Below are positions 1-39,915 of a DNA stretch of 42,547 nt, in pieces. The translations under genes were made by a program, and so were the position numbers. Within the stretch, counting starts at the first letter, position 1, and each line of letters opens with the position of its first letter. Location: assembly GCA_003344405.1 (NCBI GenBank), contig NOWV01000123.1, forward strand, positions 186,001-228,547. Reading direction: 5' to 3'. This stretch comes from Trichoplax sp. H2. Lineage: Eukaryota. Under the pieces are notes generated by a model, which saw nothing but the letters and a program-made list of their open reading frames with translations, was not told the origin of the DNA and made no database searches.

Positions 1-1697
1 GGTTCAGATAAAACCTCAAGTAACTAGAAATCTGGGGTTCAATTTATACGTAGAAAATACATAAGCTAACTATATATATCATATTTTTAGGGGTTGGACT
101 CTGGTGAGCGCTCGATGGAGTAAGTGATGCGTTGTTATCTACAATTTTGTCAAAAATTTTCGCTATATGAATTGCATACCTTCATGAAATTATAGACAAC
201 CCGCTGATAGCCATGAAGTAAACATCGATGACGACATCGTAGCTGAAGATGAAGATGAAGCTGCAAAGGAACATGTAGCTGTAGCGCAAGGTGTGTACAG
301 CAAGGATTAGGTCTAGCTAAGTATTATTTCTAGAAAATAGTAAAGTTACGGGTGCAATAAATCTATCTGATGTCATAGTAATTATTATTGTGAGATACTA
401 TCGCCTTTTTTATTGCCTTTTGTTGGCAACTAATATTAGCAAGTATAGGACTTTACAAGTATGATTATTGTTCCTTAACTTTACTGATTTTACCACACCC
501 TAAACACTATATGAGACTCAGCATTAAAATAGCGTATTAAGTTGATATACACTAATTTTGTTTTTATTCCCTTTCCGTTAACCTGTAGAAGAAGACATGT
601 ACGGTCAAAAACCTGAACATGATGAAGAATTAAAAAATCTCGTTGCAGGTATAACTCAACTATCCTTAGCAATGATGTCGATGTTGATATCGCTTTACTA
701 TTTAATTCCCATGATTACAGTAAACAGTAATCAAGCTTTATAAAATAGTATTCCATGTCTATTTTACCACAAAAATCTATTGTTATACAATTAATATGCA
801 CTGAAAGTTATCATTTTCAACTCTTGTGTAAAAATATACTTACATTAACAAAAAACAGTGGCTGATAAAGCTCGGCAAGAATATAAGGCTGCGGAAGACA
901 ATAAGAACAATATGGAGAATGAAATCCAGTAAGACAAACTATTTACTTTGAGATTGTGTTACTTGTGACAGTGGAGCTGTAACAAAGCTGAATTTGTCAT
1001 TTTGTTACAGGGAGATCGAGAAGGTACTAGGTAGTGACTTTGGATCGGAAGAGGAATTTGCCTACCTACGAGGCAAATGCTATCAATTTACCGATAGAGA
1101 GTGTGTATTTATTGAGTCTAATTGGTTGTCATACTGTATAAACTCACATGTCGGCAGCTTATATAATTAAACCAATTGTAATTATCTATTGGTTCTAGAT
1201 ACACTTATGAGCTTTGTCCGTTTGACAAGGTAACACAAACTTCAAAATCAGGAGGTTCACAAACATCATTAGGGTATGTTATATATACGACAAGGATATG
1301 CGGTATATTATAATGTATATGATGACATGAAAAGTAAAAAGCGCTGCTGCGCTCCTAATTATTTCGATTGCAGTACATGGGGTTCCTGGGTTGGAGCAGA
1401 AAACAAATACTCTAAAATGAAATACGAAGGAGGCCAAAATTGTTGGAATGGCCCTGACCGATCAGCGACAGTCAGTATACTGATACTACTAGTCTTAGAT
1501 ATAAATTTACTAACATTGCTTTCAACCAATTGAGTTGATTACATCATATTTGCATTTCGTAGATCGTCATATCCTGCGGTACTGAAGATTCATTGATATC
1601 GGCATCAGAGCCTAATCGATGCGAATATTTGATGGAATTTAAAACCCCTGCTGCTTGTTTTTCTAGAGGCAATAAGAACTCTCACGACGAATTATAA
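1..1697 (+). CDS. PRKCSH: Glucosidase II beta subunit (PRKCSH/80K-H), 3' part; 5' end lies outside the window
   Basis: Phase-consistent GT-AG exons <1-19, 91-119, 196-290, 589-648, 859-928, 1011-1100, 1199-1273, 1374-1470, 1563-1697. Translation gives an acidic stretch ([12 protein letters not shown]), then the MRH domain [35 protein letters not shown]...[50 protein letters not shown], and the ER-retention signal HDEL-stop. The first three small exons are less certain. Confidence 0.95.
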
Positions 1698-1923
1698 TTA
1701 TTAGAAATAATGTTATATTTCTTGCCAATTTAAACATTACTGATCCCATGTGAAACAGTGACGGCGTTATTTTATGTTCAACTAATATTCGATTACATAG
1801 TTGACAGAAAGTGAAATAGCTTAAATATTTTTAAATGTAGTAATTACTGATGTAAATGATGTTAACTGGGTTTTGAGCCAATTCCTGAAATTTGTGATTT
1901 ACTAATTAATTAATTATTAATTA

Positions 1924-3307: not shown

Positions 3308-6300
3308 ATGGCGTCTTCTGAAATTCCTCGAGATTTGATTCTGGCTAATTTTCAGGTGGGCTATCCCATTCTGATAGGAATCCACACAAATTGCTTCCAA
3401 TTCCACAGGCACAAATTGTCTTGATCGCTTTTATCTACGGTACTTATTTTATCTTTCATCATCATAGGTCGTCACTGGTATACAGGACTTTGACCGTTGT
3501 CTTACAATTTTAGAAGGAAACCAATGGGATTTCGAGGTAGAATCATTGCATCAAACATGACTACTATCATATAAAAATGTTAAACTAGGATACATTGCTG
3601 ATCATGGATTCAATTTGAACTTATGAAATAATTGAAATGCTATAGCTTAAGCTACAAAGTACAGCTTGTATCATCATCTCAATTGTTTTCTGTATAATAA
3701 TAATACTAAATTAGAAAGCCGTCAAGGATGCGATGCCGTTTCAAGAAGGTTACGAAGAAGTTGGGTAGGTTTCTTTCATCATGTGTTGTTACTGTATACA
3801 AACTACATGTTAGAGAATTGTTAAGATATCACCAAATTCCCTCCATTAAATATGTCGTTACTGCAGTCAGTGTAGGACAAATAATTTCATGGATAAAATT
3901 GTACCTAGTCACAGACCCATAGAATATGTCCATCAACGTCTAGCGATTGTACTAAACTGCAATGGATGCTCCTTCTGCTCGATAATGATTCCTGGCTTAC
4001 GATTCATTGATTGCAGTAATCAATCACGTTGACACACTTGCAACCCAATTTAATCGTCCACAAACTGTTAATCAATGGGCTACTAGTAAGGACTATTTTA
4101 AAATAGTCCTTACTAGCAGTATAGCGCAGATACTGTAGGTACTTGTACGGTAGACTACCAATTGTACAATTCAATTCATTGAAAAATAATGATCCTCATT
4201 ACAATATTGTACATTCCTGCAAGCCGGTCATGCAACTGTATATTAGACGCTATGTTATTATAGGAAATGATAGATCAAAATGGCTGTCATGACTAAAACA
4301 ACTAAGACTACTAAGACTAACCTTGTCGGCTGACTACAAAGCATCGCTCGTATTTCGATCTATTTTCCCTTTGAAGTATGAATTAAAAATTAAATAATGA
4401 TATCAAGTGCGAATTCTCGTACAAAGCATTGTACTTTTTTCCGCTACAACCTCTGTTCTATTCTGCATAATACAGTAGTACTGCGTCAAGATGGAGACAA
4501 GCTTCATCTATGTATGTACTGTATTTTGTGAAGAGGATAAAGTGTTACTACTCATTGATGTTAGTCGATACCAATGACTTCTAAAAGAAAAGAGATACTA
4601 TGGTTATATCTTATCTATTTCGATGATTCAATCTACAGTACTGCAAAAGTAAGCCCCTCAACAGATTGCAAAATTCTGTAGAGTACAATATCAGATACGA
4701 AGTAGCGCATTATTAATTTGATCCATTACAACCATGGAATCTTCGTTGATGCATTTAAGCTGCAATACGGAAACGATACATCGTATAGTACAGTTCAAAA
4801 ACTGGATGGTTTTTTCAAACGTATTTATTAACAATCAGTTATCGTGCTAATTCTTTGCCCCAACATGAACTGATCATTTTAAGAAGTATGCTTTTATATA
4901 GTTCTTTGCTCTTGATTTTTAGACGTACAGTCGATTTACAGTGTATAGCATGCTCAGGTCATTTCATGTAACACTTTCTACAGTATTTACTCGTATACGT
5001 TCATATGAGTACTGTACCCGAGCAGGTTACCGAAAAAAAAAGTGCTCAAAAATAATTATTAATTAAAAGCAAATTTAACTGCAGTATCATTGCTACTGTA
5101 CCCGGAATAGAAATACTCCATCTATGACTTACTCTACTCCTCTAATGAACAATTTTGCCGATAATTTATAGTTCAATATTGATATCGAACAGCGATGAAA
5201 TGTACTCGTATAAATATCTACCCTGTACAATCGTACTATACGTTACTGTCATCCATTGATAAAATTACCAACGACTTAATGAGTCATTACCCTTGCATAT
5301 ATATCTATAAAAACAAAGCTTATTACCATCATAACGAGTCTAAGGAAGTGATGCATGCGTAGACCTACAGTGCACTTTAAATGATCATGCATGACAAACG
5401 GGTTGAATTCACTACAGTAAGAAATTCCTGTTTCAACTTTATCCGCTTCTAAACATAACTTTCGTAAGTTATTTTTGTAAGCCTTTTTATATCGACGAGA
5501 TAAAATACCCTTGGATCATGCTTTAATAATAAATAAGTGGACATAATTTTCTGTCAAAACGTTTAGAACAATTGATGCTGCTGCTTTTAATACAAACAAC
5601 GAATCTACGATAGCCCAAGGCAGAAATAATGATTTGGACTATCATAAGATAGAATTCGCAGTCAGTTGGCAAGAAGATACTATTATTTTGGAAGTACCTA
5701 CCAATCGTACTGTTGGTTAGTATTTCCTATTTAGATAAGAGTTTTATAAATTTCGATCTCCTCACTATATTATAATCAATGATAATATATTTATCGTTGA
5801 CAAAGTTTTGCAATTTCGCTTATTTCAGGTTTTATCAAGGAACAATTGCAAAATCGCTTAGGTATATCACGCAAGAATCAAATATTGGAAAACTGGCCAA
5901 ATAATACTGAAATTACAATCGATGATAATGTATGATGCATCTATTTGTTAGCTTAAATTATTACTAGTCGTATTATGGTAATGGCATGAGCATCGCAGAC
6001 TTCCTACTGTTGCTTAATTTCTTTGGTTAAAGTAACTATAGATCAGATTCTTTTTTGTAATAGTGTTACTATTTCATATCGATTAGACCGTAATATCTTC
6101 GCTTATGCTGCCTGATCAAGTAAATCTTAATCTATTAACGACTTCAACCGCCGACAATAACTCTGTAAATCTGATAAGAGCTGATCAATGGTAGGACTAT
6201 GATTGTTTCCTTATTTAAAAGTTGCGACTAAGTGTATATATACAAAATAAGCTAAGTGAGCCAATTTTCGTCATCTGTCTTGTTTTACTGTAGCGAATTT

Positions 6301-8796
6301 ATCGTGCATAACTCTGGAGGAAAATTTACTTTACATTTTCCTTGGTGTACCACACTACGCGAGGTTAGTACAGTACCGTCTGTATAACGTAATTCAATAA
6401 TAATGGGTAATTGCAAGTATACAAATTATATTTTCTGACAGGTGAAGGCGCAAGTCGCAGACATATTAAATATACCGGTTAAGAGACAGAAATGGACTCG
6501 TTTGCCGAATTTCGATGACAATGTACCCTATTTGCAATGAATAATTTTCTAACTATTAGGATGGCTATATCTTGATTTGTAGCATTTTATTACAGATTAC
6601 TTTACAAGACTGTGATTTGCCACCCGTTTATAGCGCCAGCGTGGCATCGTCTTACGATTTTAATAAGGTATTGTGTGTTGAATCTTATATGTCTTGCAAT
6701 ACAATGCTTATAACACAATACCCTCACTAAAATGTTCAACTAGGCTGCTTTCTCTGCGGATGACGATATCGATGGTAATGATGATGATGATAATTGTGAT
6801 TCCATGGATTTGGTAAACATCAAGGATAATTATTTTAACTCTAACAATCAATTAAGTAAGTTTACGTAGTTTTACAATACTGTAAACGTATCGATATCAA
6901 GTTAAAAAATCAAATTTGATTCGCTACATTTAGTGCCGGATGACTGGAAAGATCTTACGCTAGCATTATCTGGATTCAGTGATGCCTTTGAAATTAGGTA
7001 AGTACTGTACTATATATGCTATATCTAAATTCCAAAATAGGTATTATATTTATCCTATGCAGATATAAGTAATATTATGAAGCGTGTTGCAGATATGGTC
7101 CCATGCATCCGCTATTTTTTATTGGCCCATTAAAAGATGCCCTAGATGAATGTTTCAAAGGAAATGTAAATCAGGTCTGTTATCTAATGTAGAAATTTGT
7201 TCAAGTTTTCAATTCTTAGAACAAATTAGTAATTTCGGCTATGCTTGATTTCAATATAGAGAAAGCCATTATTCGTTTATATACATAACAGCAAAAGTGT
7301 CCAAGTGAATATCTTTTGTAGGTGAGTGAGTTACGGTGACGAGGTAATAATAATATGAAAAACGATATTATTACTTGTGATACTTAATATCCCACTATTT
7401 ATGCTACGGTAGCAATGTTTTATGCTCAGAATCCATCGTTAACTACTTAAATCAAAACTACGTAAATTGGGCCTGGGACGTAACTTTGCCTAGTAATCGC
7501 GAAAAGTGAGTCTTATATTTTTATGTCAAATGTCCCGGTTTCTAATATATCAACTGAAAAATGTATTCGTTACAGGTGCTTTAGTTTATGTACGTCACTA
7601 TTTGGTGCTACGGCAACCTTCTCTCTGGAACGATTTGAAGACGATGACTACCCTATTATGCTAGTTATAACGAAAGTGAAATCTTCCCTAGAAATAAGTC
7701 GCGTGTTGCAAGGTGAGGATAAGAATTTATTTTTTATCTATTCGAATTACCCAAGGTTATTTGAATCTTGTTATACTTATGACCAGCTAAAATGTCATTG
7801 GACGAGCTATTTACTGGATTAATGGGTGCATTTGAAGATTACCGGCATGTGTTACATAATGAATTAAAAGAAGAAGTAAGTAATTTTAAACTACAAATAA
7901 TTTAAATTGGTCCACATTGATTCATTAATCGTCTTCGGTGATATATTTTAGTACTAAGTCGTTACTGACCATTTTTAGGAAGCTAGAGAGGCCAGACAAA
8001 GGTTCAAGAAACTTCAAGACGCGGAATATGAGGCATCTTTAAAGGCTGATCGAGCAAAGGTCAAAATTTGATAGCGTCCTTGGGGATAATCTTGAAATTT
8101 TAACGAAACCTATTGTATGTAATTTTAGGCTGAGCAGCGCGCTGCTGAGGAAGAAGAACGAAATCGCCTAGAGAAAGAGGCACAACTTTTGCGAGAACAT
8201 GAAGAGCAAGCTCTAATGGAGGAAGTAAAACGGAAAGAGGTTAATAAGTCAAACTTACCAGATTTGAAATAAATAGTAATAACCTAGAATATGTATATCA
8301 TCTGTTAAACTAGGCGGAAAGACAGAGTTTAGCACAGAGCATTCCGCAAGCACCTCCGGACAATTGTACTGATGATGTGATTAAATTCTTAATACGCTTA
8401 CCTGGTGGGGAAAGGCTATCCCGTAAATTTTATTCACGCAATACTGTGAAGGTAATATGTTGTAAATGACCTTAAGGAGCACTAGTGATCATTGCATTCT
8501 CAAAATAAACTATCTACAATAATCAACTATAAAACTAGGATTTATTAAACTACGTGGCATCCAATGGTTTTCTTGATTTTGAATTCAAAGTAGTGACTAA
8601 TTTTCCTAAACGTGAGGTAACAAATACAAATCATAGTACTGTATATTATATAAGAGTAGTTGCTTTTAATAATTATATTACGCATTAAATTATGGCCTCT
8701 TTATAATTACAATAGATTTCTGCCTTAGACCCCCACTTGAGTTTAGGAGATGCGGGATTTTTAAGCCAAGATACTCTATTCGTGCAAGACAGATGA
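3308..8796 (+). CDS. FAF1: FAS-associated factor 1 (UBA-UBL-UBL-UAS-coiled coil-UBX; p97/VCP adaptor), 21 coding exons, about 623 aa
   Basis: Exons 3308-3355, 3468-3536, 3715-3764, 5567-5715, 5829-5929, 6087-6190, 6294-6363, 6442-6522, 6596-6667, 6744-6855, 6934-6997, 7093-7174, 7260-7321, 7413-7505, 7576-7712, 7787-7875, 7979-8059, 8129-8239, 8314-8451, 8539-8616, 8716-8796; all GT-AG, phases consistent, total 1872 nt. N-terminal UBA MASSEIPRDLILANFQVVTGIQDFDRCLTILEGNQWDFE; UAS RYGPMHPLFFIG...VYIHNSKSVQVNIFCSNVLCSESIVNYLNQNYVNWAWD; coiled coil EYEASLKADRAK; UBX IRLPGGERLSRKF...TNFPKR...QDTLFVQDR*. Confidence 0.95.
4083..4116. repeat. Perfect 34-bp palindrome in FAF1 intron 3
   Basis: ctagtaaggactatttt|aaaatagtccttactag is its own reverse complement. 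Confidence 0.92.
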
Positions 8797-10997: not shown

Positions 10998-13570
<2,573 letters not shown>

Positions 13571-16584: not shown

Positions 16585-18197
<1,613 letters not shown>

Positions 18198-21249: not shown

Positions 21250-21820
21250 GCAACATTGCAATTAGTGAAGAAAATTAATCTGAAATAGGATTTTTCCAAT
21301 TCAGTATTCAATTGCAGCGAAATATACACTGCTTAATCACCTTATACATAATTGGATTATTCATGTGAGATATTGATTATGGTGCTTTACTAACTTTATT
21401 GAGCAAAACAAATTTAATCGGATTGAAATAAGCGAGATCTTGTAGCAATATTGCAATTAGCATAAAAAGTTAATTTAAATAAGATTTTTTCAAGTTCAAT
21501 ATTCACTTACTGTGGAATACGCATGAGAAATTCTAGTGAAAGCGATCAAATACTCTTAAATCGCTTTATGCATCATCCGATTGTTGATGTGAGATAAGAT
21601 AGTGTTTTGCTAACTTTGGTAAGCAGGGCAAATTTAATCGGATTTAAACAAGCGAAATCTTGTAGCAATATCACAACTAGTATAGAAATTAACTTAAAAT
21701 AGGATTTTTCAGTACAGTATTCAAATACAGTGGAAAAGGTAGCAAGAATTCTAATGAATTCGATCAAAAACTGCTGAATTGCTTTATACTCGTATATAAT
21801 CCGATTGTTTATGTTGGTAT
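21250..21820. repeat. Degenerate direct tandem repeat, unit about 220 bp, about 2.5 copies
   Basis: aatttaatcggatt at 21411 and 21631; tcttgtagcaatat at 21438 and 21658; a partial third unit (aaataggattttt...cagtattcaa) near 21283-21311; atccgattgtt recurs near 21575 and 21799. Confidence 0.85.
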
Positions 21821-24800
21821 CTTTATTGAGTAATGTCCTTAATAATCAATATTATACATACTTGACTGCTTTATGGATAAACTTATTAGAGTATTTCTCT
21901 AACGTACGCGATAAGCCAACCGAATAGAAACATCAAAATATTAGACTCCCGAGTTTCTGCACTTCAAAATTCTTAAAATTGTCATGACTTACTTTATAGC
22001 ATAACGTGAATATTGTTGTTCATCAAGATTTGGGAAAAAATCAAATTTATTGGTTAAGTACCGTAGCGTAAACATATTATTGTCTTCCTGCAATCTACTT
22101 ATATATACACAATTGTAATGCGTTACTTTTTTAGAAATCTTTCCAATAATTTGAACTTTAGTTCCTGTAAATTGTTTTACGAGGTGATAAGATAATGGGC
22201 GAACTGGGACGGTTCAGGTTTACTGTAAAAGTGTTGCTCAGTATAACAAATTAGTTCTAGTAGGATGAACAAGCAATATGGATTCGATATAATACTAGAT
22301 TAGCAACATAAATTCCCATAATGATGGCTACCAATTAAGGATCAGTTTAATTAGTTCATGAAATATACATATTAATTTATTTAACTTCATTGTAGCATTA
22401 ACTGGAAGCCGGAATGAAAATAATACCTTAGAGTATATCTATGTACGTGTCAGTTGAATAAAGGCCAGTTATGAATAATCGAGGATTCAAATTTCTAAAA
22501 ATCTGTAATTGGCATCGAATAACGCCGTCGTTGACAAAATTGCAGCAGATCTCCTCAATCATTCTTATCAAAACAGCTGTACGAAGATTGATTTTTAGTT
22601 ACAACAATTATACTGTTGAGAGACATTTTAGCCTGGAAAAGTGTGATTTAATTATGATGGTGTGTGCTATTCAAAGACGCTTGAAAGAAATCAACTTATT
22701 AGCTAGTTAATTAAATACTGGATTGATTTATAGGAATCTGATTATTACTTTTGTTTTAGCAAGTCTTTTCGAAGATAAATTCCTTTTAATTTTATTATGT
22801 AATGAAGCGAATGAACTGGTTTCGATTTTTTCGAAATCATTACTTTATGTTTACAGATGACGTTACTGATACATTATGATGAATTTTGTTTTAACTGACC
22901 TTTATTGAAATAACTAGCCTTGCTTATAATTTAAATATAATGATTTTGTTTTACCTATTCGGTCACTAAGACGCTATTAGTGCCACTACTATTATCCACT
23001 CTTGTAATATTTTTTTGCAGCCAATCCTAAATTTTAAGGAATCTATCTTATTCTAAAAGCTGGATTAATTCTATAGCAACACGGTGTATATGAATACACA
23101 GCCTTCCACTGCCTTAAAAGAAGCTAAATTGATCGGAAATTCATTCATTTTATAATATACTAGGATGTTGAGGTACAAACATCCTCAGATTTGTTACGAC
23201 AGAAGGAAATATTATGAAAGCCAACATGATTATTAATAGATAGTTTAATATTTTATTTTGAAGCCCAGTAACTTCTTATCTTTCTTAAGTGATTTTTAGC
23301 TCAAAAAATCTGTGTACTGAAGCACAGATCGTTAAGGGTTAGAGATCGAAACTTTTCATTTATATATCATATAGCTGAGCTTATGAAATTCCATATATTT
23401 ATGTTGCACTAGCTCACTTGTTATTTATGACATATATGCTGAACATTGTATATCGCATAACTTCAAATGTATCATCTATCTAGGAACAAAAAGCGATGTC
23501 TGTTATTACGTGCAGATTAATGCAATTATGAAATCAGTCGCGTGCATATGTATAATACTGATGTTTAGTAGGGACGAAATTCTTTAGTTCTTGAAAATTT
23601 TTTATACACCATACATATTCAACACATTATATAGTTGAATGAGTGGCTTATTTCGGACGTTCAGGAAAATATTAATATATCATAGCTCAATAACTGGGAA
23701 CGACTCCAGAGTCTTAGCGGATATGGCTAAGACGATATTACCAAGGAAGTCATGAGCTATTAGGTTCTCAATTCGCCTCAATATTCTATTTATATATATA
23801 TATCGCAATGAAGTGGCGGAAAGGAAGATATTTATAGAAAATTTAATAATTATATAAGTATTCTTCTGTATGTCTTAAGATAAAGCTACAGTAATAACAA
23901 TAATACTGTAGTATATTAGATTTCCACTAGTAGCGATAAGTATACTCAGTAACAATAATTTGATGCAATTGGAAGCAGCATTTAATGTTCTACCCGAATT
24001 ATAGGTGATAGTTCACATTACATTACCATAATCGAAGGCAATATTAAGCGGCAACAATATTTTCTTGAATTAATTTTACCTGTACCGAGTCAATCAAACG
24101 TGAAGTTTAAATATTATTACTTTTTCATGATTAAAATCAATTTCGTATTGCATAATGGCCTTATGATGATTCGAACCAAATTTTTAGTCAATAGAACACT
24201 TTTGAAGCGATATAAGCTTCCTGAAAAGTAAATTAATCAAGTATTGTTTGGGATTGTTTGGACAGGTGCACGTAACCTTATCAACATTTCACATGTAGAT
24301 ACAGTATACGCATATGCGTGAATAACTACCAGTACCCATTGCTGTGTCTTATAATTTCATTTAATAGTAATATAAGTTAAAATTAAGACACTTAAGAACA
24401 CATCCTTTATATTATACATCCCAATTGTGTCTAGTTGATAGTTTTTCTTTTTAAAGTCATCCTAAATGATGTCCTGTTATTCCTAATGATTAAAAGCCGC
24501 CCTTGTCTATTACTTTATACAAAATTTACTGTAAATAGCTCTTTCTTAATTAATCTACGGATAAAGATAACGACGTTTATATACATAGTTTTACTTGGTA
24601 TTGTGCCACATGAAGTATGGTAAGAATCGAAAGTTGGAGTTTTAACTCTAAAGAAATTAAATATCGTTAAAATACTTAAACTTCGAATTATAGACAGCTA
24701 TCTATTTAATTTTAAAGTAGACTATATTTATTTATTTTCTGACATAAGAGCTTTTTGATATTTTAATGAAAAAATAATTATATTATTGACATACAAAAAG

Positions 24801-27800
24801 ATCATAATTGCTAAGATACAAATGGCATGACAGAATCTTATCTGCTGTAATTCGAATTGTCGCTCCGCTCCGACTCACGCAGCGTTCGCAACAAACAAAT
24901 TTTCGAATATTTCCTGCGTCATTAAGCTCACTTTATTTTGCGACGTGTTCTTTAAGGTATAAATTGTATAAATTGCGCCATAAATTAAAAATTTTTGAAG
25001 TATCATCTTCTCAATGCATACGACAAGAGTAAATAAGATGAAAGTTTTACACGTGTCGGTATCATCTCAATAAGTTGGTGATATCATTAAATTTATATAT
25101 GGACTTTCCTTCGATGTTCATATCTTCAGTATAACTTTTTAATTATACTACATCTTCCATTTAGTTTCTCGCATGCACAGTAAATAGAAATTGTGCAAGT
25201 GTATATGTGTAAATCAAAATTAGCTGTTAGATCATTTATTCTTTCTATGTTGACATTTAATAATTTTTCTGCTGTTAAATCCTTTTAATTTTTACGAGAC
25301 TAATATCGAAAATACTAATGTAAAAATTCTAATAGCAAGTTTACTATTGCCAATGATTCACAGCTGCAAGGATTTGGTCAACTTGGTATATCTGATATTT
25401 ATAATAAGCTTATAGGGATCATTTTAGTAGCTGATTTTATGATCTAATTGAGAGCCAATGTAAATTTTCTTACTAATGATCTAGTAAGAATGCTATTCTT
25501 TGGAATATAGTAACATAGCAGTAGTCCTTGTTGACCAATCTAGTATTTCGAATTCTTCAATTTGAAACTTTATATGATCTATCAAATTTCTGTAGAGTCG
25601 GTCATCTTAATCATGTTACGTATACACTCTACCAATTGAAATAATACGCTATGAGTTATTGCAGAAATTTTACCATTAGCCAGTAATCAGACTCCGAATA
25701 TGAATGCAGCGAACAATATGCAGTTTGTTAAATCAGATTAAGTCGTAAGTAGAACCGATTAGTGATAACCGCAAAATTTAATCTACATCAAAGAGAGAAG
25801 TTATAAAATACCTATTAGCCTGAAGTTAACTTCAGCCATTAAGCTTGTATAAAATTCAAATTCTTTTTAATCTGTAAATTTCGAACTTGGATGTCTTATT
25901 GCATCAATTTAATCTGCAATCATTCCAATTTAACCCGATATTTTCTAATACAAGTTTTACTTACACCCCACTACCTACTCTCTTCTAATGTGATGTGATC
26001 AACTAACTTACTAGCTGCTTAGTCACTCCAACTGACTACGGAGAGATACTGTAAGTAAGACTAACAACTTCCTCACAAGTATAATAAGCGGCTTGTTGTA
26101 AGATCAGTTTTATGAGTTTTTAATTCTATTCATATAACGAAAGTATAGTACCTTGTCGTACACTAACAACTAGAAAATGCTTTCAGTGTAGGATTTTTCA
26201 TTTCAATAGGTACAGTCCATACTGCAGATATTATTTAGGATTTATTTAATAATAAAATTAAGTAAATTTTGCCTGGTAACATAAAATTAAATTAATATTA
26301 CGGCAAAGAGATACAAGATGGCGCATTAAAACTATTTTTATTTAGATATTAACGATCAGTACAGTAATCAATTTTATGTTAATATTTCGAACATTTTAAA
26401 ATGTTAAGTCAGCCGATGTCGTCTCGTGGATGCCCCTAGAATCTAATATCATTAATATTTATGCTAGATAGATTAGCGTATAGTAGAGTAAATGTCTCTG
26501 GTTCTGTCAGCACGCTCAGTTATTTTGTAATAGACTATTATGTCATTAATATCATTTGTGATTTCTGATGAATGCAACTGTTGTAGTGTTAGCAACCGTT
26601 GCACGGTAAATAAATTTTGAATAAATGTTATTATTCATTTAATTCAGTTATGCGATAGTATCAACGATTAATTTAGCTATTAGTTTTGTTATTAATATCC
26701 TTTTTCATTTACGATATAGTACGGAATTTATATGGCTTTATTTGCAACTCTCAGGTGCTTCTATTGAGAAACTTTGGGGGATGTTATATCAATTAACTAA
26801 AAAAGATGAGATTTAATAACAAAATAATTCTTGTAATCGTTAATAATAGTTTCGGTTATTTTGATTACCCGTTGTTGTCGCATGAAGTAATAAAATAATT
26901 TTTCTTCACTTCCAATATTATTTGTGTCTTACGAAGAGAAAGTAGTTATCCGTTTATTGTATTTTACTAACAAAATTGGTGCTTTCATTTAGAATTCATT
27001 GAATAATGAATTGCCTAATAGAATTTATACCAGAATTGTTCTAGTAGGCAGGAATAAACAGTCTGTAATTGATTTATTGGACCAACTGAGTTGAATCACA
27101 ATATGCCAGGCTTTGTTCATTGATTGTGGATATTGGCGATAATATAATTGCGATTTGGCACCTGCTACAAATTCAATTTCATTTAACAAAATGAAATTAT
27201 CTACATCAATGAAATGATGTTAGATAAAATTAGAAAGAATAGATTCACCTTATTGGCCGCTTGTTAGTTTTGATTATTTCGTGCAATTTATTTAACACTC
27301 GATGAACTCTTGATAAGCGACCAGCAGCAAAATATCAGAATTATTAGGGAGGATTGAATGCAGCAAATCTGATAATTACTTTCTAAATGCAAGGGGTTTA
27401 AATTTTCTTCGCTAAAATAAGTTTTCAATTTTGAAATGATGATTAATATATTGTAAATTTTTCTTATCTTAATTTTAATTGTTGATTAAAATGAAATTTG
27501 ACATTCTGGTTTTATCCTTGTATAACTTGAATATTACTTAAATTGACATACTGCTTACCGCCTACTCTATAAATTTAGCAAAATAAGAAGTTTACCAATT
27601 TTTTCTTCGTTAATGCAATTGGTGTAATCGCTTGTCGCGAATTGCTATAGGTATGCTTTGCTAGTATCGGAGGTCTGAACTCAATTAAAAACGAAAATAA
27701 TTCCTTGTATATATATTAAAGGGTCATTTGTGGAGTATAGCTTCGAAAATAATTAGAAATATGGCATAAGAAATTGCAATCTATGCAGCTTGGTGACAGC

Positions 27801-30800
27801 TCCAACTTACAATTATAATTATTTATAAAAGATATTTAATTGACACTATATTAATCAAATAAGCCAGTAATAAAGGTATCTGCTAATTATTATCTTGGAT
27901 GTATACGATAACTTCCAACTTCATCATTAACATTCTACTATCAGAATTAGGATGTTTATCACCTAGAACAATTTAATTCGATATTAGTATGAAGTCTATT
28001 TGGTAAATCATAATTGTATCTATTCTTTCCATAAATATATTCGATCCTGCTACTTCATTAACCTCATAAGAATTTATTTATGGCTTCCTTACATTGCTTA
28101 GGCAACGCGATTTGGTACGATGCCTGATTTTTAATCAATGACATATTTATAAGAAATTTCTATTATTCCTGTATTAATTACATATAGAAATCCACATAGA
28201 TTACTATTTTAAATTGATGCCTTATGGTTAAGTAATGAAATAGTAATATCAATAACACCAGCAATCCCATAAGATTTCTAAAGTTGTATTTAATTCTAGG
28301 AATATGGAAGTTAACTACAATCAAGTGCATTGATCATATTAGCCTATTATCTTTATTATTCATCATAACAGGATCCGTAATATATAAAAGTGCACATTAA
28401 CATTTTTATCCTTCGAATTGAATTTGATATTCTGTTCTTGCTATTGATTAAAGATATTAAAATCTGCATAGCCAGCAATTTGTTATTTTGTATGTTATTC
28501 AGATTATTGATAGTTATATTGTGATGACATGTGAAAGACTGCATATAGCAATCATTGAATTTTATAATTGTACTTGATGGTAATTTAAATACAATACAAA
28601 TGAATTAAAGGAAAGAAGATAAGTCTATGATAAGATCATAAATTCAATACTTTTATTATGATTTCGTTCAAATTAACTCAACTAATAATAACGATGATAA
28701 AGAAAGGTCTGCTATCTATTATTTATCTATAAGAGACTAATTCTTTAAACAGGATAATCAGTGCTAAATCGTAATTTTACTACTCTACAGCATAACAGTA
28801 AACCGGATGGGCTCAGTAAAATAAATAAATCAATGCTCACCAGATGTTATTAGTAACCGTGTTATTATGATAGCAGATTCAAACAGAATATGTTTAATAA
28901 TGGGCTATTGTTTGCCAGTTGGCAAATTGAGCTAAAAGAGACGAGACATGCAGATATATATCAACAAATGCCCGTATTACTTAAAATTACGCTATTTGGT
29001 GTAATCATTGAACCTCCTTAACGGTCTTATTTTTTATCCTACTGTATGTTTTGTGCCAATGCAGGTTGTTGCAAGTCAGTTATAAAATAACTAGCTCTAT
29101 TGATAACGATATTCTATAATGAATAGTTGAGTTCATTTTCCATTATGACTGTAGCTAAGTAAAAGCTGTTAATATCACCACAGGAAATACGCAATATCCT
29201 ACTACTGTCTTATAAGATACTGTCATATCCAAGTATTAATTTAATTTTTTCCGAATTTTATCGCAAATGCGAATTTGCAACAGTAATATAATCACACAGG
29301 TTCAGCTGTTTCAACCAAAATTCAATTACAATTCGTCTCACTGATATTTTTGGCGTAATCTTGGTTTTTTAAAATATTGTCTTACTATAAGATAAATAAG
29401 TCAACGTATTTACGTTATCAACAGATCACATCTATAGTAATATCTATTTTAATTATCACTCGTAGATAGGTTATCAACACAAAAAATTTTACTGCTAAAA
29501 TAATTCAAATTGAAGTATGTTAAAATATGGCAATGTCAGTTATTTCTTTTCTTGGATTTGTTTAGAATTTTATTTAGATTTGTAATTTTAATCTATACCA
29601 GAAACCTGAAGTAAGCACTAAGGAATTAACATTAGTCAATGAGTTGACTGGATTAATTAATTTTAGATCAGATTCTGTAAGATGTATGAAATAAATTTAT
29701 GATGATAATAGGGTTTGTAGTCTAAAATAATAGTGATCATAAGCGTGATCGTTAAAATGGTAAATCTCATTTACTGTAATTAGTACCCGTATATCATCTT
29801 GTTAATACTGCAGTCCTTAAATAAGTAAATATTGTTATGATTTTTTGGCTCCATATGAATTCATATTGCTAATTGCATGATTTAAAATAATAAATAAATA
29901 ATGTAATAAAAGATAAAATAAGAACTTCACATCATTTTATCTTGTAACGTCAAAATAAACCTATTTTCCATAATGTAATCATAACATGGAAATAATGTCG
30001 TAAAATATACTAGCTGTAGCAAATTTCATCTACTGCATGCATCAACCGAAAGTAGCCTATCCTAAGGAAAAATGTATCCTGTTAATTTTTAATATCGTCA
30101 CCGAGGAAAATAACAATTCATGAACAACAGCTTGTATGAACTTACGGTAGTCAATTAAGGTGAATAAGTAGAACACACTAACAGTTACTCACGTTTGTTA
30201 TTTTTGTCGTATGATTCATAAAAATATCATATATAATATCATATTATGGATGTTTATATAAAATATTTCATGTTAATAAACAAGATATCGTTCTAAAGTC
30301 CATTGTATCTAGTCTTTAGCGTACAGTATAGTTGATGATTGTTTTTTGAGGAAAGTTGTCGAAAATACGGTGCAATAAGAAGAGGCCAAAAATAGAAAGT
30401 AGAACGATCAAAAAAAAACCTAATGCCATCTTGTACTTGTTGTAGCTAAACAACTTAAGAATTATTAAAATCCAAAGCGTATAATTAAAAAATTAAAATT
30501 ATAATGTATTACATAAGATTAATTTATCTTTTAATTAGTAATGAAGACATAAGCTACAATACAGTAATAGAAAGAAATATGAACACTTGATCACATTAAT
30601 AGCTGAGTTAATTTAAAGTCGACGAATATGAGTTTCAAAATGACATTATTGATTAGTCACAAGGTGAGAGAATAAGTTGTTATTATTTCATGGAAACATA
30701 ATCCGGCCAATGAGTCAACTTAAAAGATGAAAGGAATTTAATAAAATAGTCATTTTAACTATTGATAACGTAATTGAATTGTCATTAAAGTGAATCAAAA

Positions 30801-33800
30801 TAAAATCTAGATTAACATGCAGATGAATAATTCACTATCATTTGTCATTATTAAGGTAACAATATGCAATTAAACTGTGATGTAACATCTTCTTATTTAA
30901 AAAGAATTGCCTGCAATCCAACTGTTTTCATTCTCTATGATCATCGCTAGATAATTGTAGGCATTTGATCAGCAATTAATTTTACTAGATATCTTACGAA
31001 AGAAAAATAAATTTTATCTTTTCCCAATTTGATGAAATGGATTAAAATCGTTTTATTGATGATGGGGGAAATGATAGACTGAATTCGTATGGCAGCTGCC
31101 ACACGTCTTTCTCGTTACCATATGTTTTATTATATTTTAATCATCTTATTTCTTTCCATCTGGTTGCCGTTGACCATTATTCTATATTTATTCATCTTTT
31201 GATTTCTTACCCCCTAGTGTTAGCTAAAAAAATCAAGGCGGTTTCTTTAACTATAAGCGCCACTAAATTGATATTTAGTTAAAAGCTATTGAATTTATTC
31301 AAGTCAAATAGTCTATTATAAATTTGAATTATCTCATTATTACTTGGACGTGTGTGCTTGCCTATGGAAGTGTGTAAAAGCGTGTAAGGTTAATCTATCT
31401 GTCATCATTAAGGATTTGAAGATCAATCAATCAATCAAATTATTCACGTCATGATCTTGCTTTTGTCACATACTATTATCGAAATTATAATATTATTCAT
31501 ATTAATAATCTAGCTCTTCTCTTCCGTCCATAACATAGATTTTGTAATTTGAGATTTATCTACTGTAATACTTTTTTTCACTTAATCCTATTGAAAACAT
31601 GATCAATTTAGATTTAAAATAGCTTACTACCGGTATTGACTTAAAGCTAATGGAAATCATTAGTAAATTAAGACATCTACGGGTAAGCCGAAAAAACAGA
31701 TATATCAACATTAATGACTTATAAACGGAAGGAAAATTCGCAGATGGAATGACCCCTCCAAAAAATAGATGAAAACAACATTACCATTGTTCATGATCAA
31801 TTCAGTATCGTCATCATATTTCTATTTGGGGATTGTTATATAAGATCGGAACGGATGAAGAATCGGTTGTATTATCTCATTTCAAGATAAAGCAGTGTAT
31901 AAAGATAGAAAATGATGGAAAGAATAGAAAATTATACAAATAGTTAATCTATTAGTTCAATCGACCCAAGTTTGAAGTTAACATTTGCATAACTTGATTT
32001 ATTTATTATCCTGATAATACCGTAACAAAATAGAATTAATTGAAAAGCACTTGACACATGGCTACAGACAATAGAATAATAGGAAAGCAATTTAGTCAAT
32101 GGTCATAACAATGGTCAAAGTAGATAATTGACATGTAAATAGTCGTCAGTTAGTTTTGTTTGTTAAATCTAATAACAACAAAACAATTAATCTGATTAAG
32201 CTTTTTGAATGTGGACTAACAAGTCTAGTCTATTCGCCGAAGATTAGTATAATTGAGTGATTTACTAAAGACTTCTCCTAATAAAGTAGGGTTACACTTA
32301 AATAGGAGATAACGGGATAAATTTTATTAGATAATATTGTATGAACATGTCATAACAATAGATTAATGTATCATCAAACAAGTATAGTTAACAAAAGCAG
32401 GGCACAAATCAGTGATTGGAATAGAAGTCTGTACTGCTAGGAGGTGGCTTTGTCTTTTAATTTAATTACATTTGACAATAGTGCAAGTAGCATTGTGTAC
32501 GTGTTTGTAGGTTTTCAATCGAGAAAGTTTTTTTCAATCCAAGAGTCTTTCAACTGTCTAGATCGATAGTTGGATTAATTAAAACAATAACCAAATTAGA
32601 AAAGAATAGAAAGGGGATACATAAATACTTTACACATAGTCTACTTCCATTTCATACTCGGATTATCAGATAGTCAGCAAACCTATCCTGTTCCTTTGGC
32701 TAATTTAATTCGTGACCTAAAATATCGCTACTTTTTAGGTAAGATTTTATTTTTTTCTGTCATTGGAACTTATCATCATTTTTATCATGACTACGTCCGT
32801 GTGCACTGTGCTTAAACTTGCTTAAATTTTTAAAGTTATCCTCCATCTTTATACGCTTGAAATATTACAGTATTTTGGAACTACATTTCGTCTGCAGGAG
32901 ATTTACATTTGTTGTGATTAACAGTATAAGTTTGTGGTAATAGCAACCGTATTTCACATATTGTTCATGAGAAGAAAGGATTTCTTTCAGTTTATCGGTT
33001 ACATGATCTTCTCTATGAGCCAAAAAAATCTTGGCCAACTTTTTTAAGTAATTCTAATACTGCTAACTTAATACCGAGAATCTTTGATCGAATAGTTTAA
33101 TCAGTACATATATAATGACGGATTTAATTTTAATCAATGCAATTATTGGATACATGTCTACGACAACATACTATAGAAGTGTACGTTGGAATATTGGTAG
33201 CACCAAAGCAGAAATGATTTCATTAGATAATTAAGTTGGCTTCTCAATATTAATCAGACGATAAATTAATTATATACCATTACTACTATTAGGCGGGGAT
33301 AGAAGATATCTGAGAATATCTAGTCCTTTTGATGGTTGACTTTAAAGTTGTGCTGATGATTACTTCTTGCGTCTTCATATTTTCAATATATGCCTAGTTT
33401 CGTGTCGTATGTATCAAATTGTCCACTTAATAAATCTATTGATTTTTAATTGATGGAGCTAACCATAGCAATTCATTACCGTAGCAAAAGCCTTTCATCA
33501 TACTAGTATATCGCTATACCAGCTGATGATTCAAAGTAGTACCGTAGTGAGAATAAACTTCCAAGCTGATCGAATAGTACCTAAAACAACAAAACATATC
33601 CTGTACAGTAATTAAAATGGCGACTAATGTACCAAGCGGTACCCATTCTTGGCATGAAGAAATAAATTTAGAGATAATAACAATAATAATTGATAGGCTA
33701 AGCTATTTAGCAAATTGAAAAAACCTGATCACCAGGTTAATACAGAAAAGAATGTGCAATTCTTCCCATTTAACAAATCGGTTAACCACTGCACATAGGG

Positions 33801-34069
33801 TATATTATACACACTACAGAACAATGTATATTGTATTCTATTAATGACAACCATATTACAGTAAATGATGATATCTTGTTTCTATGATGAGTTACATATT
33901 TGTCAAGGTGTATGTTAGAATCTTTTCGAGGGAATTACATAACTACTGCTTACGGCTAATCTTCTAACTAAAATAATCTTGCTTTACATTATTAAAGAGA
34001 TAAATCCTTTTTCTATGTTGTATAGATTCTAATCTTCATATCTGAAATTATTTCCTATCAAGAACAAAG

Positions 34070-37000
34070 ATGAAAAATAGCGACAAGCAACAACGCTCAC
34101 CTAAATGTGCTCGCTGCCGCAATCATGGGGTTATTTCTATCTTAAAAGGGCATAAACGTTATTGCCGTTGGCGCGATTGTACATGTGCAAAATGTATCCT
34201 GATTGCAGAAAGGCAAAGAGTTATGGCTGCTCAAGTTGCGTTAAGGCGACAACAGGCACAAGAAGAAAATGAAGCAATTTACTTTAATTCAGCATCCAGT
34301 AATGCCACTAATACAGCCGCAGCATCTAATATCCTCCCTTCGATCAATCACGATGGCAGCCATTGCCGTCAGGATAAAGAATCTATGGTGATCCATCACG
34401 GAATGAAACGCTTTAAAAGAGCAGATAGTCAAGATCATGATCGTCATGGTAAGTTAAACTTAGCAAGGTATAATAAGTAATCATCTTCAATATTAATCAG
34501 TAATGTATGTATTTATGACAAAATAGTTGTTAATAATTATAAGTTAAGGTATAAGCTATATGCTGCTATGTATTGGCCTGATTCCTGTTAGTAAATGCGA
34601 CAATGTTGTTCAAATAGCTATCCAAGTAAATATGTGATGATGATGAACCGAAGTACTACTTTTAATGCGGTTAAAAAAATATTTCCTTCTGAGTGATTGC
34701 TCTATCAGTTGAAATATCGGGGGTAAAAGTTTTCCTCAACCGAAGTCATAAATGAACATATTTACAAAAGCATTTCGTTGAGGAATTCAGTAAAGAGAAT
34801 TTATTTAAATTTGGTAACTGAAATACATAATCACTGCACTTTAAACCTATCCTCGTAGTGTATTTACAATATTTACTTTTCTTAGTCATTAAAACAGACT
34901 GTAGAATAGCTTTAGTTTAATAATCATTTTTACTTAAATCAGTGCCGTCGGCTTTCATGACTGAAAGAGAGTTACAAATTTAAAGATTTTATTAGTATGT
35001 TGCCACATATTAAAGCTAACGCACACGTCTTAGATAATTTCAGTCGACCCCCTCCGGCCTTACTATTGAGCTATAACAATTGCTTGGCATGTTTTCAAAA
35101 GAAATATAAAACATCATTTGATTCTTCTTGCTGGTACCGCGTACTGCAAGTCGATTGAAATAATAATTATCCCCTATGGCATCTAATTCAACATTACACA
35201 ATATTGTCATCATATCTTGATTAATGACGATAAAAGTATCAATCATATCTACTTTTTATACTATGTTAGTAACTTTTTCCTATTAATGATGATAGTTCAT
35301 ACTTACTGATAATACTAAGATTGGAAATTGATGTTTAGTCATCTATTATTTAGCAAGGTTATAAGTCAGGTGGGCTTAAGTTAACATCGTTGCCAATGTG
35401 GGTATATTTTGTTTTACAATTTTTTTTATCTGATTCATTATATTCATTTCCAGTATGAAATAAAATTATATTAATACAATGAGTCAAAGATCTTTCCGTA
35501 GGTCGAACTGACTTCGTAGAGATAGGGAGGGAGAGGAAGGGGAAAAGATATTATTAGTGTTCCAAGGCTTTCGACTGACTACCTTATCGATGATGCAAAA
35601 TATTACTCATTTCTTTATGGTTTATATATAATTTAGTTGATATTACCACTATTTCGTCTGAGAAATATTTTTGGTTATACAGCTGCTACAATACTCCTAA
35701 TTGATACGTCAAGTAGTTTATAGATGGTGCGATAGGAATTGGATTGGTATACTGTTTAGTAGTATATGTTGTTCAGACTATGAAATGTACCTTTATAACC
35801 TGCAAATTACTATAAGAGAATCATGAAATCATTGCTGTTGAACATTTTCGCCAGAATTATGACTACTCTCGATAGCAGATAAGAATAGATTCAGTTTTTC
35901 ACCTTGTCAACTTGTTTATCGTTAATAATAATAGTGATTAGAATAAAAATTAAACAACTACAGCGGTTAACCATTGCAATCATTTTACGCTTTTCGGCGC
36001 TTCTGCCATATAAGATTTAATTCGCTGTCATTAATCCATTCTTATATCATAGCTTAAATCAAGTCAACTTTCTTAATGAGCAGAGTAGAGAAAGAATAAT
36101 CTAGATTTATCGGTTTGACGGATTTAAATTTAAAAAACTGTGAAGTAAGTGCGTTTAGCCTAGTAACTAAACTTGATTGAATATTTAAAGATCTACGGAG
36201 ACCTAGTAATACATGCTATTACTAAACCAGACGTTTAAATATACAGTGTATATTAGAAAGCAATAATTTCAAAATTTTCCAACGCAGTATTTGTGGTTCG
36301 CCCTCCCTTTCTAATATCCTTCTAATCCTACATAATTCTCTGAGATGATCGTTTGTTATTTTCAATCAACTCTGATACTCTGTTTAATTAAACAATGCGG
36401 TAGAAAACAATCATAGACCCCGTCAAGTTGGCCAGACAATCGAGTAGAGTTTAAATATTAATATAAATTGGATTAAAGGATTTAAATTTCACGTACATTG
36501 TTTATGATTATTTTGCTTGTTCCACCCGTTTTTCCTATACATTCTTCTCGTACATTGACTTACAAATCAGTTTATCATGTACGTATTCATCAGCCAGAAT
36601 AAATTATATCTAAAGGATTAAACGATGAGTACTAGATATCGACCATAATTCATATCTCAATTGTAAGTTGTAAACTATCTCAAATATTACTATGAAACTA
36701 TAAGAACAGATTAGATAAAAGCAGATCGTTTACTTGAATGAAAAGATTATTTGTCTAAACAGGTAAGAAATTGATGGCGTTAGGGCAGCCACACGATCTA
36801 GAACAACAAAATGTCGTATAAATTTTAACTTCGTCGATCAGCCTGAGGTGATATTCAAACACAAATGATCAACAATCTCTCGACAATTGTTTTACCAGGT
36901 GGTTAAACTTAATCAAGACAACAGAGACAACATTACGTAAATTATACTTGCTATTATTTATTATATAATTAAGCCCTAACAATAAATCAAAATAGACACT

Positions 37001-39915
37001 ATTACTTCATTTGTGATAGTTTTCACAGAGGCCTAGGGGTGGAGTATACACACATTACCGTAGCTGCTGATTATCCATTTTTCTATAGTTATAGACATAT
37101 CCAGTAAAAGTATGTCATAGCGATCATACTGTTGTTGCACAATTCATTTTAACTTAGCAGAAAAATTAATGTAGTAAGACAGTCAAATGTTATGCCAATT
37201 AAATATGTTATTAGTCTAATTTTTAACCTCAAGAAATTTCCCAGTTGTAGTCTTAACCGTAATTGTTAATAACCCTGGTTGTTAAATATTACCCTTGAAA
37301 GTATGAATATCATCATATCAGATCATAAAATATATTGTATAGATAGTAGATGACTTCATTTCTCTTGTGAAATTACGACAACGTTGCTGTTGTTGCTGTT
37401 ATAATTATATAATTTATTGTGGTTGTTCTGCCTTTAACAATAGTGTTGTTAAAGGAAATTGCAATGTAGTTACTTTGAATAGTAATATCGATACAATTTC
37501 AAATTCAAAAGTTTTCTAAACAGTACCCTTACGATAAAAGAATCTACATTTTCTCGAATATTTCTGTCCTTAAACTAGATTAGAGTATGATGCAATCATC
37601 TTGGGATATTGTTTGCGATTTGAAAGTGGTTACAACATCAAGTAATTTTTTCTTAAAAATAGAGAGGGATAAAAATATGTGTTATGGACAGTAATAATTA
37701 ATCTTTGATTAGTTTACGCTAACTGTCAAATATTTTCATATACTGCTTTATACCGCCACTTATCGCTATTTTGCTACGTCTTACTAGTGTAAGACGAAAA
37801 AAAGAAGGAAAAATTTCAATAACACCGGTGTTACTTCGACTGTGACCAACTTTTGTCCTTTCGGTCCTTTACCGTTTCGAAATGTAGTTAATACTAGACT
37901 AAGTTACCGTGATTGAGAATTTAAACGAGGTACGGATACTTTTCAATGACTAAAATCAATTTATCGCACCAATAGTATCTGGAAGGATTTATAATGGTAA
38001 AATTAAAGCTTTCTCTAAAAAGTCTATGAAATGCGCACTTTACCTAATATGAAAGAGTTCATAATTAGAGAAAAAATTGATAGCTAATGGTGATTATACT
38101 TAATTTAGGTCAATTATCGTATAAATCATTTTATTAAGCGTTAAAATAGCTATATAAGATGTGTGATTACATCATACAAAGAAAACCTTATTTCATAAAT
38201 GGTCAATTTAAAATGACGGCAATCAATTGATTTGAGTCTTTACAATCCTTAAAGTTACTATAGTAAGAAAGATGGATATCGTCTAAAACTCTTACTGTCC
38301 CATTAGAGTAGGCGTAATGTAGATGTTTGCTATGTTAGTTGTGGCTAGCCTCTTTAGCAGCTCCATTTTATGCTCTATCGAAAAAATAAGCATGATTTTG
38401 ATAGTTTTATACTAAAGTACCATCACAATCAATTGTATTCGTAGCTGACTGATGTAATCAAATTCTTTGCTTTCTCCGTTAGCTATGCTACGCTTAGTAC
38501 GCGTAGCAGATAGAATTTGGCTGTAAATTCTTATTCAATCGACAGAATGAATGTTTAGAAACATTCAGTTAAAGAATGCAATTCGCTGATACTCTATTTT
38601 GACTCATTAAAATAACAGTCTGAACGTATATAACATTATACAATCAAATAGTTGTCAAACAATACTGTTGTATACTAATTGTTTCTTGACATCGCCGCCT
38701 TTCTTTCTTTCTGCTTTGTATGCCTGTCTTAACGGTTAGCGTGTTGTTGTCAACGTCTAACCAATATACTACCATCTATAGCCTGTCTTGATAAAAGCTA
38801 TAGAAAGTAATTATTAATCCATCTCTATTGTATCGAATCATTTTGCTATTGCACAAACAAATTACCGAAATTAAGCAAATGATAAACGAATTGACTACTG
38901 TTGACCAAGTCGTAAAAAAATCGACGATATTCTCTGGACTGAAAATTATATATACAACACTACTAGCATGCCATCTAATACCCTTAATCACATATGACTC
39001 TATTCACTACTACTGTATTATTGACAGCACAAAATTAGAATGGCCCTGATTTGTATCTTCTTTCTTACCAGTATATCTTCGTTGCGATACCGTTTTCTTA
39101 TTGCGCTACTGTGATATAAGTTTAAAAATAATAGGAGAAATTATTCAACAATCTCCTTCTTAACATAGCTTTTCTACCTGAAACTACTAAACTGAAGGTA
39201 GCATTCATTATTCTTTTAATCCTATTCCTTATATATATATTATTTTAATTTGATATGATTAGATTTAAAACGCACTCGTTTAAATGATAAAAGCGACGGG
39301 AGTGACGATGAAAAGATAGATAGCGACTACTCAGATGAAAGTTCTACCAAGGATAGAAACAATTCAATTCTGTCACCTCAGCAGCAAACTAATGGAAATG
39401 GTGACAACAGCAATAGCAGCAAGCCCGATTCTAAAATGACATTGATGAATGGAAGTATGTTAGTTGGTGTCAACGGTGAAAATCGATCTCATGATTCTCC
39501 ATTGAATGTTCTGTATCGTGTTTTTCCTCATCGCAATCGTAGTTTTCTTCAATTGATATTACAAGCTTGCAATGGCGATTTAGTTCAAGCCATCGAACAA
39601 ATTAGTCGTAGTCCAATTAATCGTGGCTCCGGTTTACCACCATCGCAGTTGATTTCACCAACGACAGCACCCTATTTGGCTTCTTCATTTGTTCCACCAA
39701 CATCCTTATCAGCAAGCAGTCAACCAATGCGGTTATCTTATGGATCGGATAGTTTACTAACGATGGTGAATCCAAGTTATCCACCCCATCTGCCGCTAAA
39801 CAATTTTACTGGATTTACATCACGCGATATGCAGTCACAGCAAGTTTCTCATGCCTCGCAAGGTTTGCATTCACGCAATTGTTACCTTTGCAACCTTTAT
39901 GGGCAACCAAAATAA
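34070..39915 (+). CDS. DMRTA: DMRTA-type (doublesex/mab-3 related) transcription factor with DM and DMA domains, about 343 aa
   Basis: Coding exons 34070-34448 and 39263-39915, joined by a phase-1 intron of 4814 nt (GTAAGT...TTAG). DM domain [61 protein letters not shown] domain [36 protein letters not shown]. An acceptor at 34025 followed by an in-frame TGA suggests a spliced 5'UTR. The exact subfamily needs a tree. Confidence 0.93.

Follow-up and report, generated by a model that had tools for sequence, protein, structure and literature searches.

The locus described here raises the question whether a DMRTA-type transcription factor gene, a DMRT regulator of the sex/brain type, and its neighbours have been kept together since before placozoans and bilaterians separated. 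It was examined in 42,547 nucleotides of Trichoplax sp. H2 (assembly GCA_003344405.1, contig NOWV01000123.1, positions 186,001 to 228,547, forward strand); this whole stretch is called the window in the following. The window contains the 3' half of PRKCSH, FAF1, two calcyphosin paralogues and a gene with a DM and a DMA domain, in this order and all on the plus strand. A preliminary description, made from the sequence, had read this arrangement as part of a very old block with the ancestral order PRKCSH>FAF1>DMRTA><ELAV and had predicted an ELAV gene downstream. According to our results the window is very probably the placozoan copy of an ancient microsyntenic block, in which a DMRTA-type gene has been linked to FAF1, PRKCSH and calcyphosin since at least the placozoan-bilaterian ancestor.

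The linkage has been catalogued before, in a database row that is not discussed. Block 274 ('Planulozoa novel') of the Syntenic Density Database (Robert et al. 2022, BMC Genomics, PMC8851819, supplementary file 4) joins FAF1 (OG0001054), PRKCSH (OG0002271), calcyphosin-like (OG0001256), DMRT (OG0000368) and ELAV (OG0001029), and is dated to the cnidarian-bilaterian ancestor; the text of the paper is silent on all of these genes. The figures for block 274 given here rest on the 125 rows listed in supplementary file 4. Among these, FAF1 is found in five species (coelacanth, cichlid, scallop, Ptychodera and Saccoglossus), with a DMRT row on the same scaffold in all five, PRKCSH in three (coelacanth, scallop, squid) and calcyphosin in two (scallop, Ptychodera). 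The listed rows of these three families are bilaterian only.

On chr4 of the scallop a calcyphosin-like gene (T08934), PRKCSH (T08939), a DM gene (T08940), DMRTA2 (T08943) and FAF1 (T08945) are located, that is, the four families of the window inside twelve gene identifiers. One scaffold of Ptychodera carries CALR (g34210), MTAP (g34212), CAPSL (g34213), FAF1 (g34214), a DM gene (g34216), DMRTA2 (g34217) and MIDN (g34220), and scaffold_203 of Saccoglossus carries FAF1, DMRTA2, MIDN, a second DM gene and CDKN2C. AGBL4, ELAVL4, a PRKCSH-like gene, DMRTA2 and FAF1 share one scaffold in the coelacanth; FAF1, DMRTA2, elavl4 and agbl4 are listed for the cichlid, PRKCSH and three DM genes for the squid. 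The proposed great age of the FAF1/PRKCSH/DMRTA-type linkage is supported by the presence of the same families together in scallop, two hemichordates, squid, coelacanth and cichlid. The calcyphosin genes, regarded as filler in the preliminary description, turned out to be members of the block, as calcyphosin-like rows belong to block 274 in scallop and Ptychodera.

Blocks were defined by Robert et al. by at least three shared orthologues with at most five genes between them; collinearity was not required (PMC8851819). The window falls under this rule with four families in five consecutive genes, the Trichoplax genes being assigned to orthogroups by our own judgement, outside the pipeline. T. 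adhaerens was among the 49 genomes of that study, and its tree has a Parahoxozoa node below Planulozoa (PMC8851819). No Trichoplax row for the orthogroups of block 274 was found among the rows listed, and TriadP58828 had no match among the 66 T. adhaerens rows listed in supplementary file 4. The Trichoplax instance is probably new to block 274 and is older than its dating. As a side observation, rows 12967-12971 of this file are labelled Capsaspora owczarzaki and have CAPTE_Capte identifiers and CAPTEscaffold scaffolds; the species label is probably wrong and looks like Capitella teleta.

The vertebrate part of the proposal is in print. In passages of PMC7689362 faf1 and elavl4 are described as flanking dmrt5, and elavl2 as following dmrt4, from fish to human, which agrees with the FAF1-DMRTA2-ELAVL4 and DMRTA1-ELAVL2 neighbourhoods of the preliminary description. 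The literature search, judged by title and start of the abstract, gave one fish paper only and no paper on invertebrate faf1-dmrt synteny; no paper on prkcsh-elavl3 synteny was found either. In PMC11034925 faf1 and dmrt2a are merely entries in gene lists. The main texts of PMC3514665 and PMC7530604 are without FAF1, DMRT, ELAV and PRKCSH; their supplements may list the pair.

The comparison depends on the identity of the genes in the window, which is AT-rich (GC 0.28-0.40) with short exons. The five genes, their common strand and their order, as first described, were confirmed by domain, structure and protein matches. Three consecutive, exon-bearing frames are collinear on solved chains of glucosidase II beta and match residues 390-425 (frame 952-1170, E 0.0039), 444-484 (frame 1273-1533, E 5e-10) and 483-514 of 528 (frame 1563-1697, E 7e-07). 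For the MRH part the solved-chain search favoured glucosidase II beta (7e-07) over GNPTG (0.0025) and ERLEC1 (0.35). Pfam PRKCSH_1 was matched with 29.7 and 36.8 bits, and HDEL stands directly before the stop. The N-terminal part of PRKCSH, which binds the alpha subunit and has EF-hands, lies before base 1 of the window.

The UBX gene is FAF1, as claimed before, by domain layout and by best matches. The deposited Trichoplax sp. H2 protein FAS-associated factor 1 (P0285, 623 amino acids) maps to 3308-8793 with exon cores 100% identical. In this protein Pfam cut-offs were exceeded by UBA_4 (24 bits, cut-off 21.8), UBA_8 (26.9, cut-off 26), ubiquitin (29.5 bits at residues 180-215), PF21021 FAF1 (183.4 bits, profile positions 1-145 of 146) and UBX (54.4 bits). 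Solved human FAF1 chains were the best matches, with 4.5e-77 for the C-terminal half; the T. adhaerens model TRIADDRAFT_58828 (P0001, 561 amino acids) matched solved human FAF1 with 1.2e-38 in the UAS domain, about 1e-12 in UBX and 5.6e-05, 2e-04 and 5.6e-04 in the first ubiquitin-like (UBL) domain. The four best named Atlas clusters were FAF1. Among 2009 matches with E up to 0.001, named FAF1 proteins of a hemichordate, a crinoid and a sea spider reached 4.7e-97 to 2.9e-75, and two rows named FAF2 scored 5.4e-48 and 3.2e-30. A word-index search with P0001 yielded four matches, none of them named FAF2.

Ubiquitin-like domains between UBA and UAS are not known from FAF2. The FAF2-type proteins P0263 and P0264 have UBA, a partial PF21021 match (53-57 bits) and UBX, and no ubiquitin match. 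In a tree of 53 rows P0001 stood in a comb without resolution. In a tree of 30 rows, with only two automatically named FAF2 rows, P0285 joined the pair formed by a soft-coral (Xenia) protein and P0264 (Shimodaira-Hasegawa-like approximate likelihood-ratio test 87) inside the FAF1-rich part. This pair has the FAF2-type layout, the Trichoplax protein the FAF1 layout, and we infer that an outgroup attaches here to the earliest-branching FAF1.

The T. adhaerens model P0001 differs from the window in a few residues. It is without both UBA exons (3308-3355, 3468-3536), exon 3715-3765 and the UBL2 exon near 6439-6525, all of which P0285 has, and its first N-terminal residues had no match in the window. 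A transposon considered in the GC-richer part at 2-4 kb was dropped; this stretch is the 5' end of FAF1, and no repeat or extra gene was found there.

EF-hands were found by Pfam in exons of both calcyphosin-like genes. The best solved match was a calcyphosin-like protein (2.5e-07), ahead of other EF-hand proteins. The copies a and b have an identity of 44-53% over exons 1-5 and of 82% over the last one, which points to old paralogues. A lone piece at 15487-15582 has 50% identity over 32 amino acids to exon 5 of copy a (E 8.4e-06), and no further exon-like piece of a third copy was found near it by tblastn; it could be what remains of a third copy, or else an exon that is not used. In the H2 gene table of Najle et al. 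2023 (PMC10580291, file 3) the tags 008102 and 008103, both calcyphosine_like, are followed by the DMRTA-like 008104, consecutively and in the order of the window.

For the last gene, the DM domain (E 1.3e-25, 89.4 bits) and the DMA domain (E 1.9e-19, 69.4 bits) were found by Pfam. RNA contigs of four runs from four studies were compared over 20500-40499. The DM and DMA exons are spliced together in three of the four runs, across the intron 34449-39262; the introns 32739-34025 and 39863-39985 were each found in two runs (X11 and X13, and X7 and X11, respectively), all three with GT..AG borders. The end of the gene at 39915, as first described, had to be corrected, since splicing of the last intron removes that stop in two of the four runs. 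The spliced protein comprises 336 amino acids, while retention of this 123-base intron leads to a stop at 39913-39915. The contig of a third run stops at the donor of this intron, and alternative splicing with a different short C-terminus may be present. Two splice forms are given for the coral DMA gene AmDM1 in a passage of PMC4433094. The gene extends from before 32738 to beyond 40499 and is longer than the preliminary description stated.

Among the best 120 of 3128 matches of the DM exon, the rows with a single DM domain were almost all named DMRTA2 (vertebrate, amphioxus, insect), and the domain is 80% identical to that of beetle DMRTA2. In a tree of the DM domain (48 rows, 80 columns) the gene stood in a comb of DMRTA2-type rows, with no well-supported clade around it, and outside the DMRT3-type (95/87) and DMRT1-type (98/94) clades. 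TrispH2_008104 was named 'like_DMRTA1/DMRTA2' by Najle et al. 2023 (PMC10580291). For T. adhaerens the DMRTA-type gene is listed as a model with DMA only (TriadG58832), and a model with DM only (TriadG9574) is in the same expression module (PMC10580291, file 3). These two models may come from one gene divided at the 4.8-kb intron, which is perhaps the reason that the block escaped synteny pipelines; otherwise, TriadG9574 is the second DMRTA-like gene. The positions of all features are compiled in Table 1.

Table 1 Features of the window, with positions counted from its first base
Feature	Positions	Strand	Remarks
PRKCSH, 3' half	1..1697	+	acidic stretch, MRH domain, C-terminal HDEL; 5' part before the window
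FAF1, complete	3308..8796	+	UBA, two UBL regions, UAS (PF21021), UBX; UBA exons 3308-3355 and 3468-3536, small exon 3715-3765, UBL regions 5568-5932 and ~6295-6525
Calcyphosin-like gene a	10998..13570	+	six coding exons, last 13469-13567; EF-hand matches, paralogue comparison
Lone calcyphosin exon-5-like piece	15487..15582	+	tblastn with exon 5 of copy a
Calcyphosin-like gene b	16585..18197	+	six coding exons, last 18096-18194
Stretch without detected gene, ~14.5 kb	18198..32673	.	upstream of the DMRT transcript; holds repeats
DMRT non-coding first exon, 3' end	32674..32738	+	joint 32738^34026 in RNA contigs
DMRT exon 2	34026..34448	+	start codon 34070, DM domain; joint 34448^39263
DMRT exon 3	39263..39862	+	DMA domain
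DMRT last exon	39986..40499	+	29 coding bases, stop 40015-40017, 3' untranslated region continuing past 40499

That FAF1 and the DMRT gene are separated only by the calcyphosin pair was likewise supported: gap frames, Rfam, tRNA and RNA joints gave no other gene. None of 212 gap frames of at least 40 amino acids reached a Pfam cut-off (two sub-threshold matches, 17 and 17.7 bits), and the window scans gave no Rfam and no tRNA match. No spliced RNA contig was found in 20.5-32.7 kb in the four runs, parts being uncovered or covered by unspliced contigs of low depth; this patchy cover is no proof of a silent stretch. Local repeats of about 230 bases, 74-79% alike, are located at 21250-21815. A piece of about 200 bases (25968-26165) has high depth in all four RNA runs, with unlike sequence on either side, and has no Rfam match; hence it represents either a dispersed repeat or part of a transcript that originates elsewhere.

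Gene content is conserved in the block, gene order is not. The proposed ancestral order PRKCSH>FAF1>DMRTA><ELAV is not supported by other animals: on the assumption that identifiers follow position, PRKCSH is on the DMRT/ELAV side in scallop and coelacanth. In the scallop it adjoins the DM genes on the side opposite to FAF1, and the coelacanth PRKCSH-like gene (XP_006004085) stands between AGBL4 (…083) and DMRTA2 (…087). If early vertebrates had the order ELAV-PRKCSH-DMRTA-FAF1, the position of PRKCSH beside human ELAVL3 (19p13.2) would be accounted for equally well, without the order first proposed. This adjacency and the human strand orientations are presumably as generally described. The only confirmation obtained for PRKCSH-ELAVL3 is a list for a 19p13.2 amplicon, in which PRKCSH, ELAVL3, CDKN2D, KANK2, DOCK6 and LDLR appear together.

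A minus-strand ELAV gene had been predicted nearby downstream. In the 2.5 kb after the DMRT stop no RRM-like frame was found; this stretch holds the 3' untranslated region of the DMRT gene. Placozoan ELAV positions are taken from published identifiers (Najle et al. 2023, PMC10580291, file 3), not from DNA. The ELAV orthologue of H2 has the tag 010789, 2,685 tags from the DMRT gene of the window (008104), and a second DMRTA-like gene, with DM only, has the tag 010792. The tags speak against ELAV as the next gene in H2, and the prediction, taken literally, is not favoured. In Hoilungia the DM/DMA gene (g10837), a DM gene (g10838), two further genes and ELAV (g10841) follow within five identifiers. 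A DMRTA-like gene and ELAV are three identifiers apart in both placozoans, and the locus tags support a DMRTA-ELAV linkage in this group. Protein identifier numbers of T. adhaerens, considered as evidence for ELAV on a 3.2-Mb scaffold, were dropped, as identifiers within a scaffold are not positional.

If the piece with 010792-010789 followed 008104, H2 would show the same spacing as Hoilungia. The assembly of H2 consists of fragments (the contig of the window genes has 228.5 kb), and an assembly gap and a real break are indistinguishable in it. It is conceivable, though rather doubtful, that Trichoplax keeps the whole core of the block as PRKCSH-FAF1-calcyphosin-calcyphosin-DMRTA-DMRTA'-x-x-ELAV and that the split in H2 is a gap of assembly or contig ordering, or a very recent break. 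In that case nine genes, a DMRTA pair among them, would form a regulatory neighbourhood that already existed before placozoans separated from cnidarians and bilaterians, earlier than the published date.

Why the block persisted can be discussed by analogy with other loci. Regulatory constraint is our tentatively preferred reason. As in a genomic regulatory block, control DNA of the DMRT gene would be distributed throughout the neighbourhood; selection would then act against breaks that part this regulator from its neighbours, but would tolerate changes of local order and orientation. In the window the DMRT gene has a gene-free flank of 14.5 kb ahead of its transcript and a 4.8-kb intron, both the largest present, the other intergenic gaps being 1.6, 2.2 and 3.0 kb. 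Passages of PMC7049698 name DMRTA2 among the cases in which enhancer links conserved between human and zebrafish skip bystander genes, and distal promoter-enhancer contacts are described for T. adhaerens in a passage of PMC12221973. Furthermore, the two calcyphosin-like genes and the DM/DMA gene are in three different expression modules of the H2 table (lightsteelblue1, yellow and red; PMC10580291), as expected for bystanders; FAF1 and PRKCSH were not found by name among the listed rows of this table.

Several observations weigh against an ancient block held by regulatory constraint. Cnidarian rows (Exaiptasia, Acropora, Clytia) place the DM gene with OMA1, CAAP1, WLS, PI4KA or USP24, and those listed for block 274 contain no FAF1, PRKCSH or calcyphosin. 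Block 274 itself is a chain-merged composite of pairwise blocks, and order and sides differ among Trichoplax, scallop and coelacanth. The calcyphosin pair of Hoilungia (g06843/4) is about 4,000 identifiers away from the DM/DMA gene g10837; hence, judged by identifier distance, the calcyphosin-DMRT link was broken within placozoans. The introns of FAF1 are mostly about 60-110 bp, with one of about 1.8 kb (3766-5567), and the tiny ones can hardly hold enhancers. The regulatory reading of this locus is plausible by inference from others.

The most serious alternative is that an ancestral linkage was kept by nothing particular, with slow rearrangement in placozoans and a block left unbroken in several lineages. 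We consider such neutral retention a real possibility. The scrambling of order and orientation between lineages agrees with it, as do the break in Hoilungia, the location of ELAV and FAF1 on different scaffolds in both hemichordates, and the origin of the regulatory arguments at other loci. However, FAF1 and DMRT are still linked in one placozoan, one mollusc, two hemichordates and two vertebrates, though most animal adjacency is lost, and 162 blocks of this age compare with 17-25 in shuffled genomes (PMC8851819). A developmental regulator with a gene-poor flank is, moreover, the usual signature of constraint.

A functional cluster, in which the neighbours have expression, promoters or a chromatin domain in common, appears unlikely. 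Five genes on one strand with short gaps between the first four would suit it, and promoter-promoter hubs are described as common in placozoans in a passage of PMC12221973, but the different expression modules of the three genes, the lack of a known common pathway of the four proteins and the change of order and orientation in other animals argue against it. Chance or convergent assembly of a bilaterian-like block is very improbable: overlap of any window with a merged composite of many families is easier than with a small block, but four specific families are present in five consecutive genes here and within twelve identifiers in the scallop, and under random order the odds of three named families within five genes of the DM gene among about 12,000 genes are about 1e-8 by our own rough estimate.

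The window does not stand for a phenomenon of a new type; blocks of this sort are known in the hundreds, and the present one was already in a database. It moves the FAF1-PRKCSH-calcyphosin-DMRTA linkage from the bilaterian record back to the ancestor shared with placozoans, and it shows calcyphosin as a member of the block. In Trichoplax the neighbourhood, which extends over hundreds of kilobases in vertebrates, is present in a compact 40-kb version. Hence, it is a convenient place to weigh regulatory constraint against slow decay, using existing placozoan data from the assay for transposase-accessible chromatin (ATAC) and from Micro-C.

Compared with the vertebrate neighbourhoods FAF1-DMRTA2(dmrt5)-ELAVL4 and DMRTA1(dmrt4)-ELAVL2, as given in passages of PMC7689362, a DM+DMA gene near FAF1 is common to both sides, and a linkage to ELAV is indicated in placozoans by identifiers. 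In contrast to the vertebrates, Trichoplax has two calcyphosin genes between FAF1 and the DMRT gene and PRKCSH directly upstream of FAF1, and ELAV is outside the window. Genomic regulatory blocks (Irimia et al. 2012, PMC3514665; Touceda-Suarez et al. 2020, PMC7530604) are defined by conserved non-coding elements, whereas the Trichoplax locus is compared with them by gene content alone. In this respect the likeness is the long-lasting link of a developmental transcription factor with unrelated, broadly used genes.

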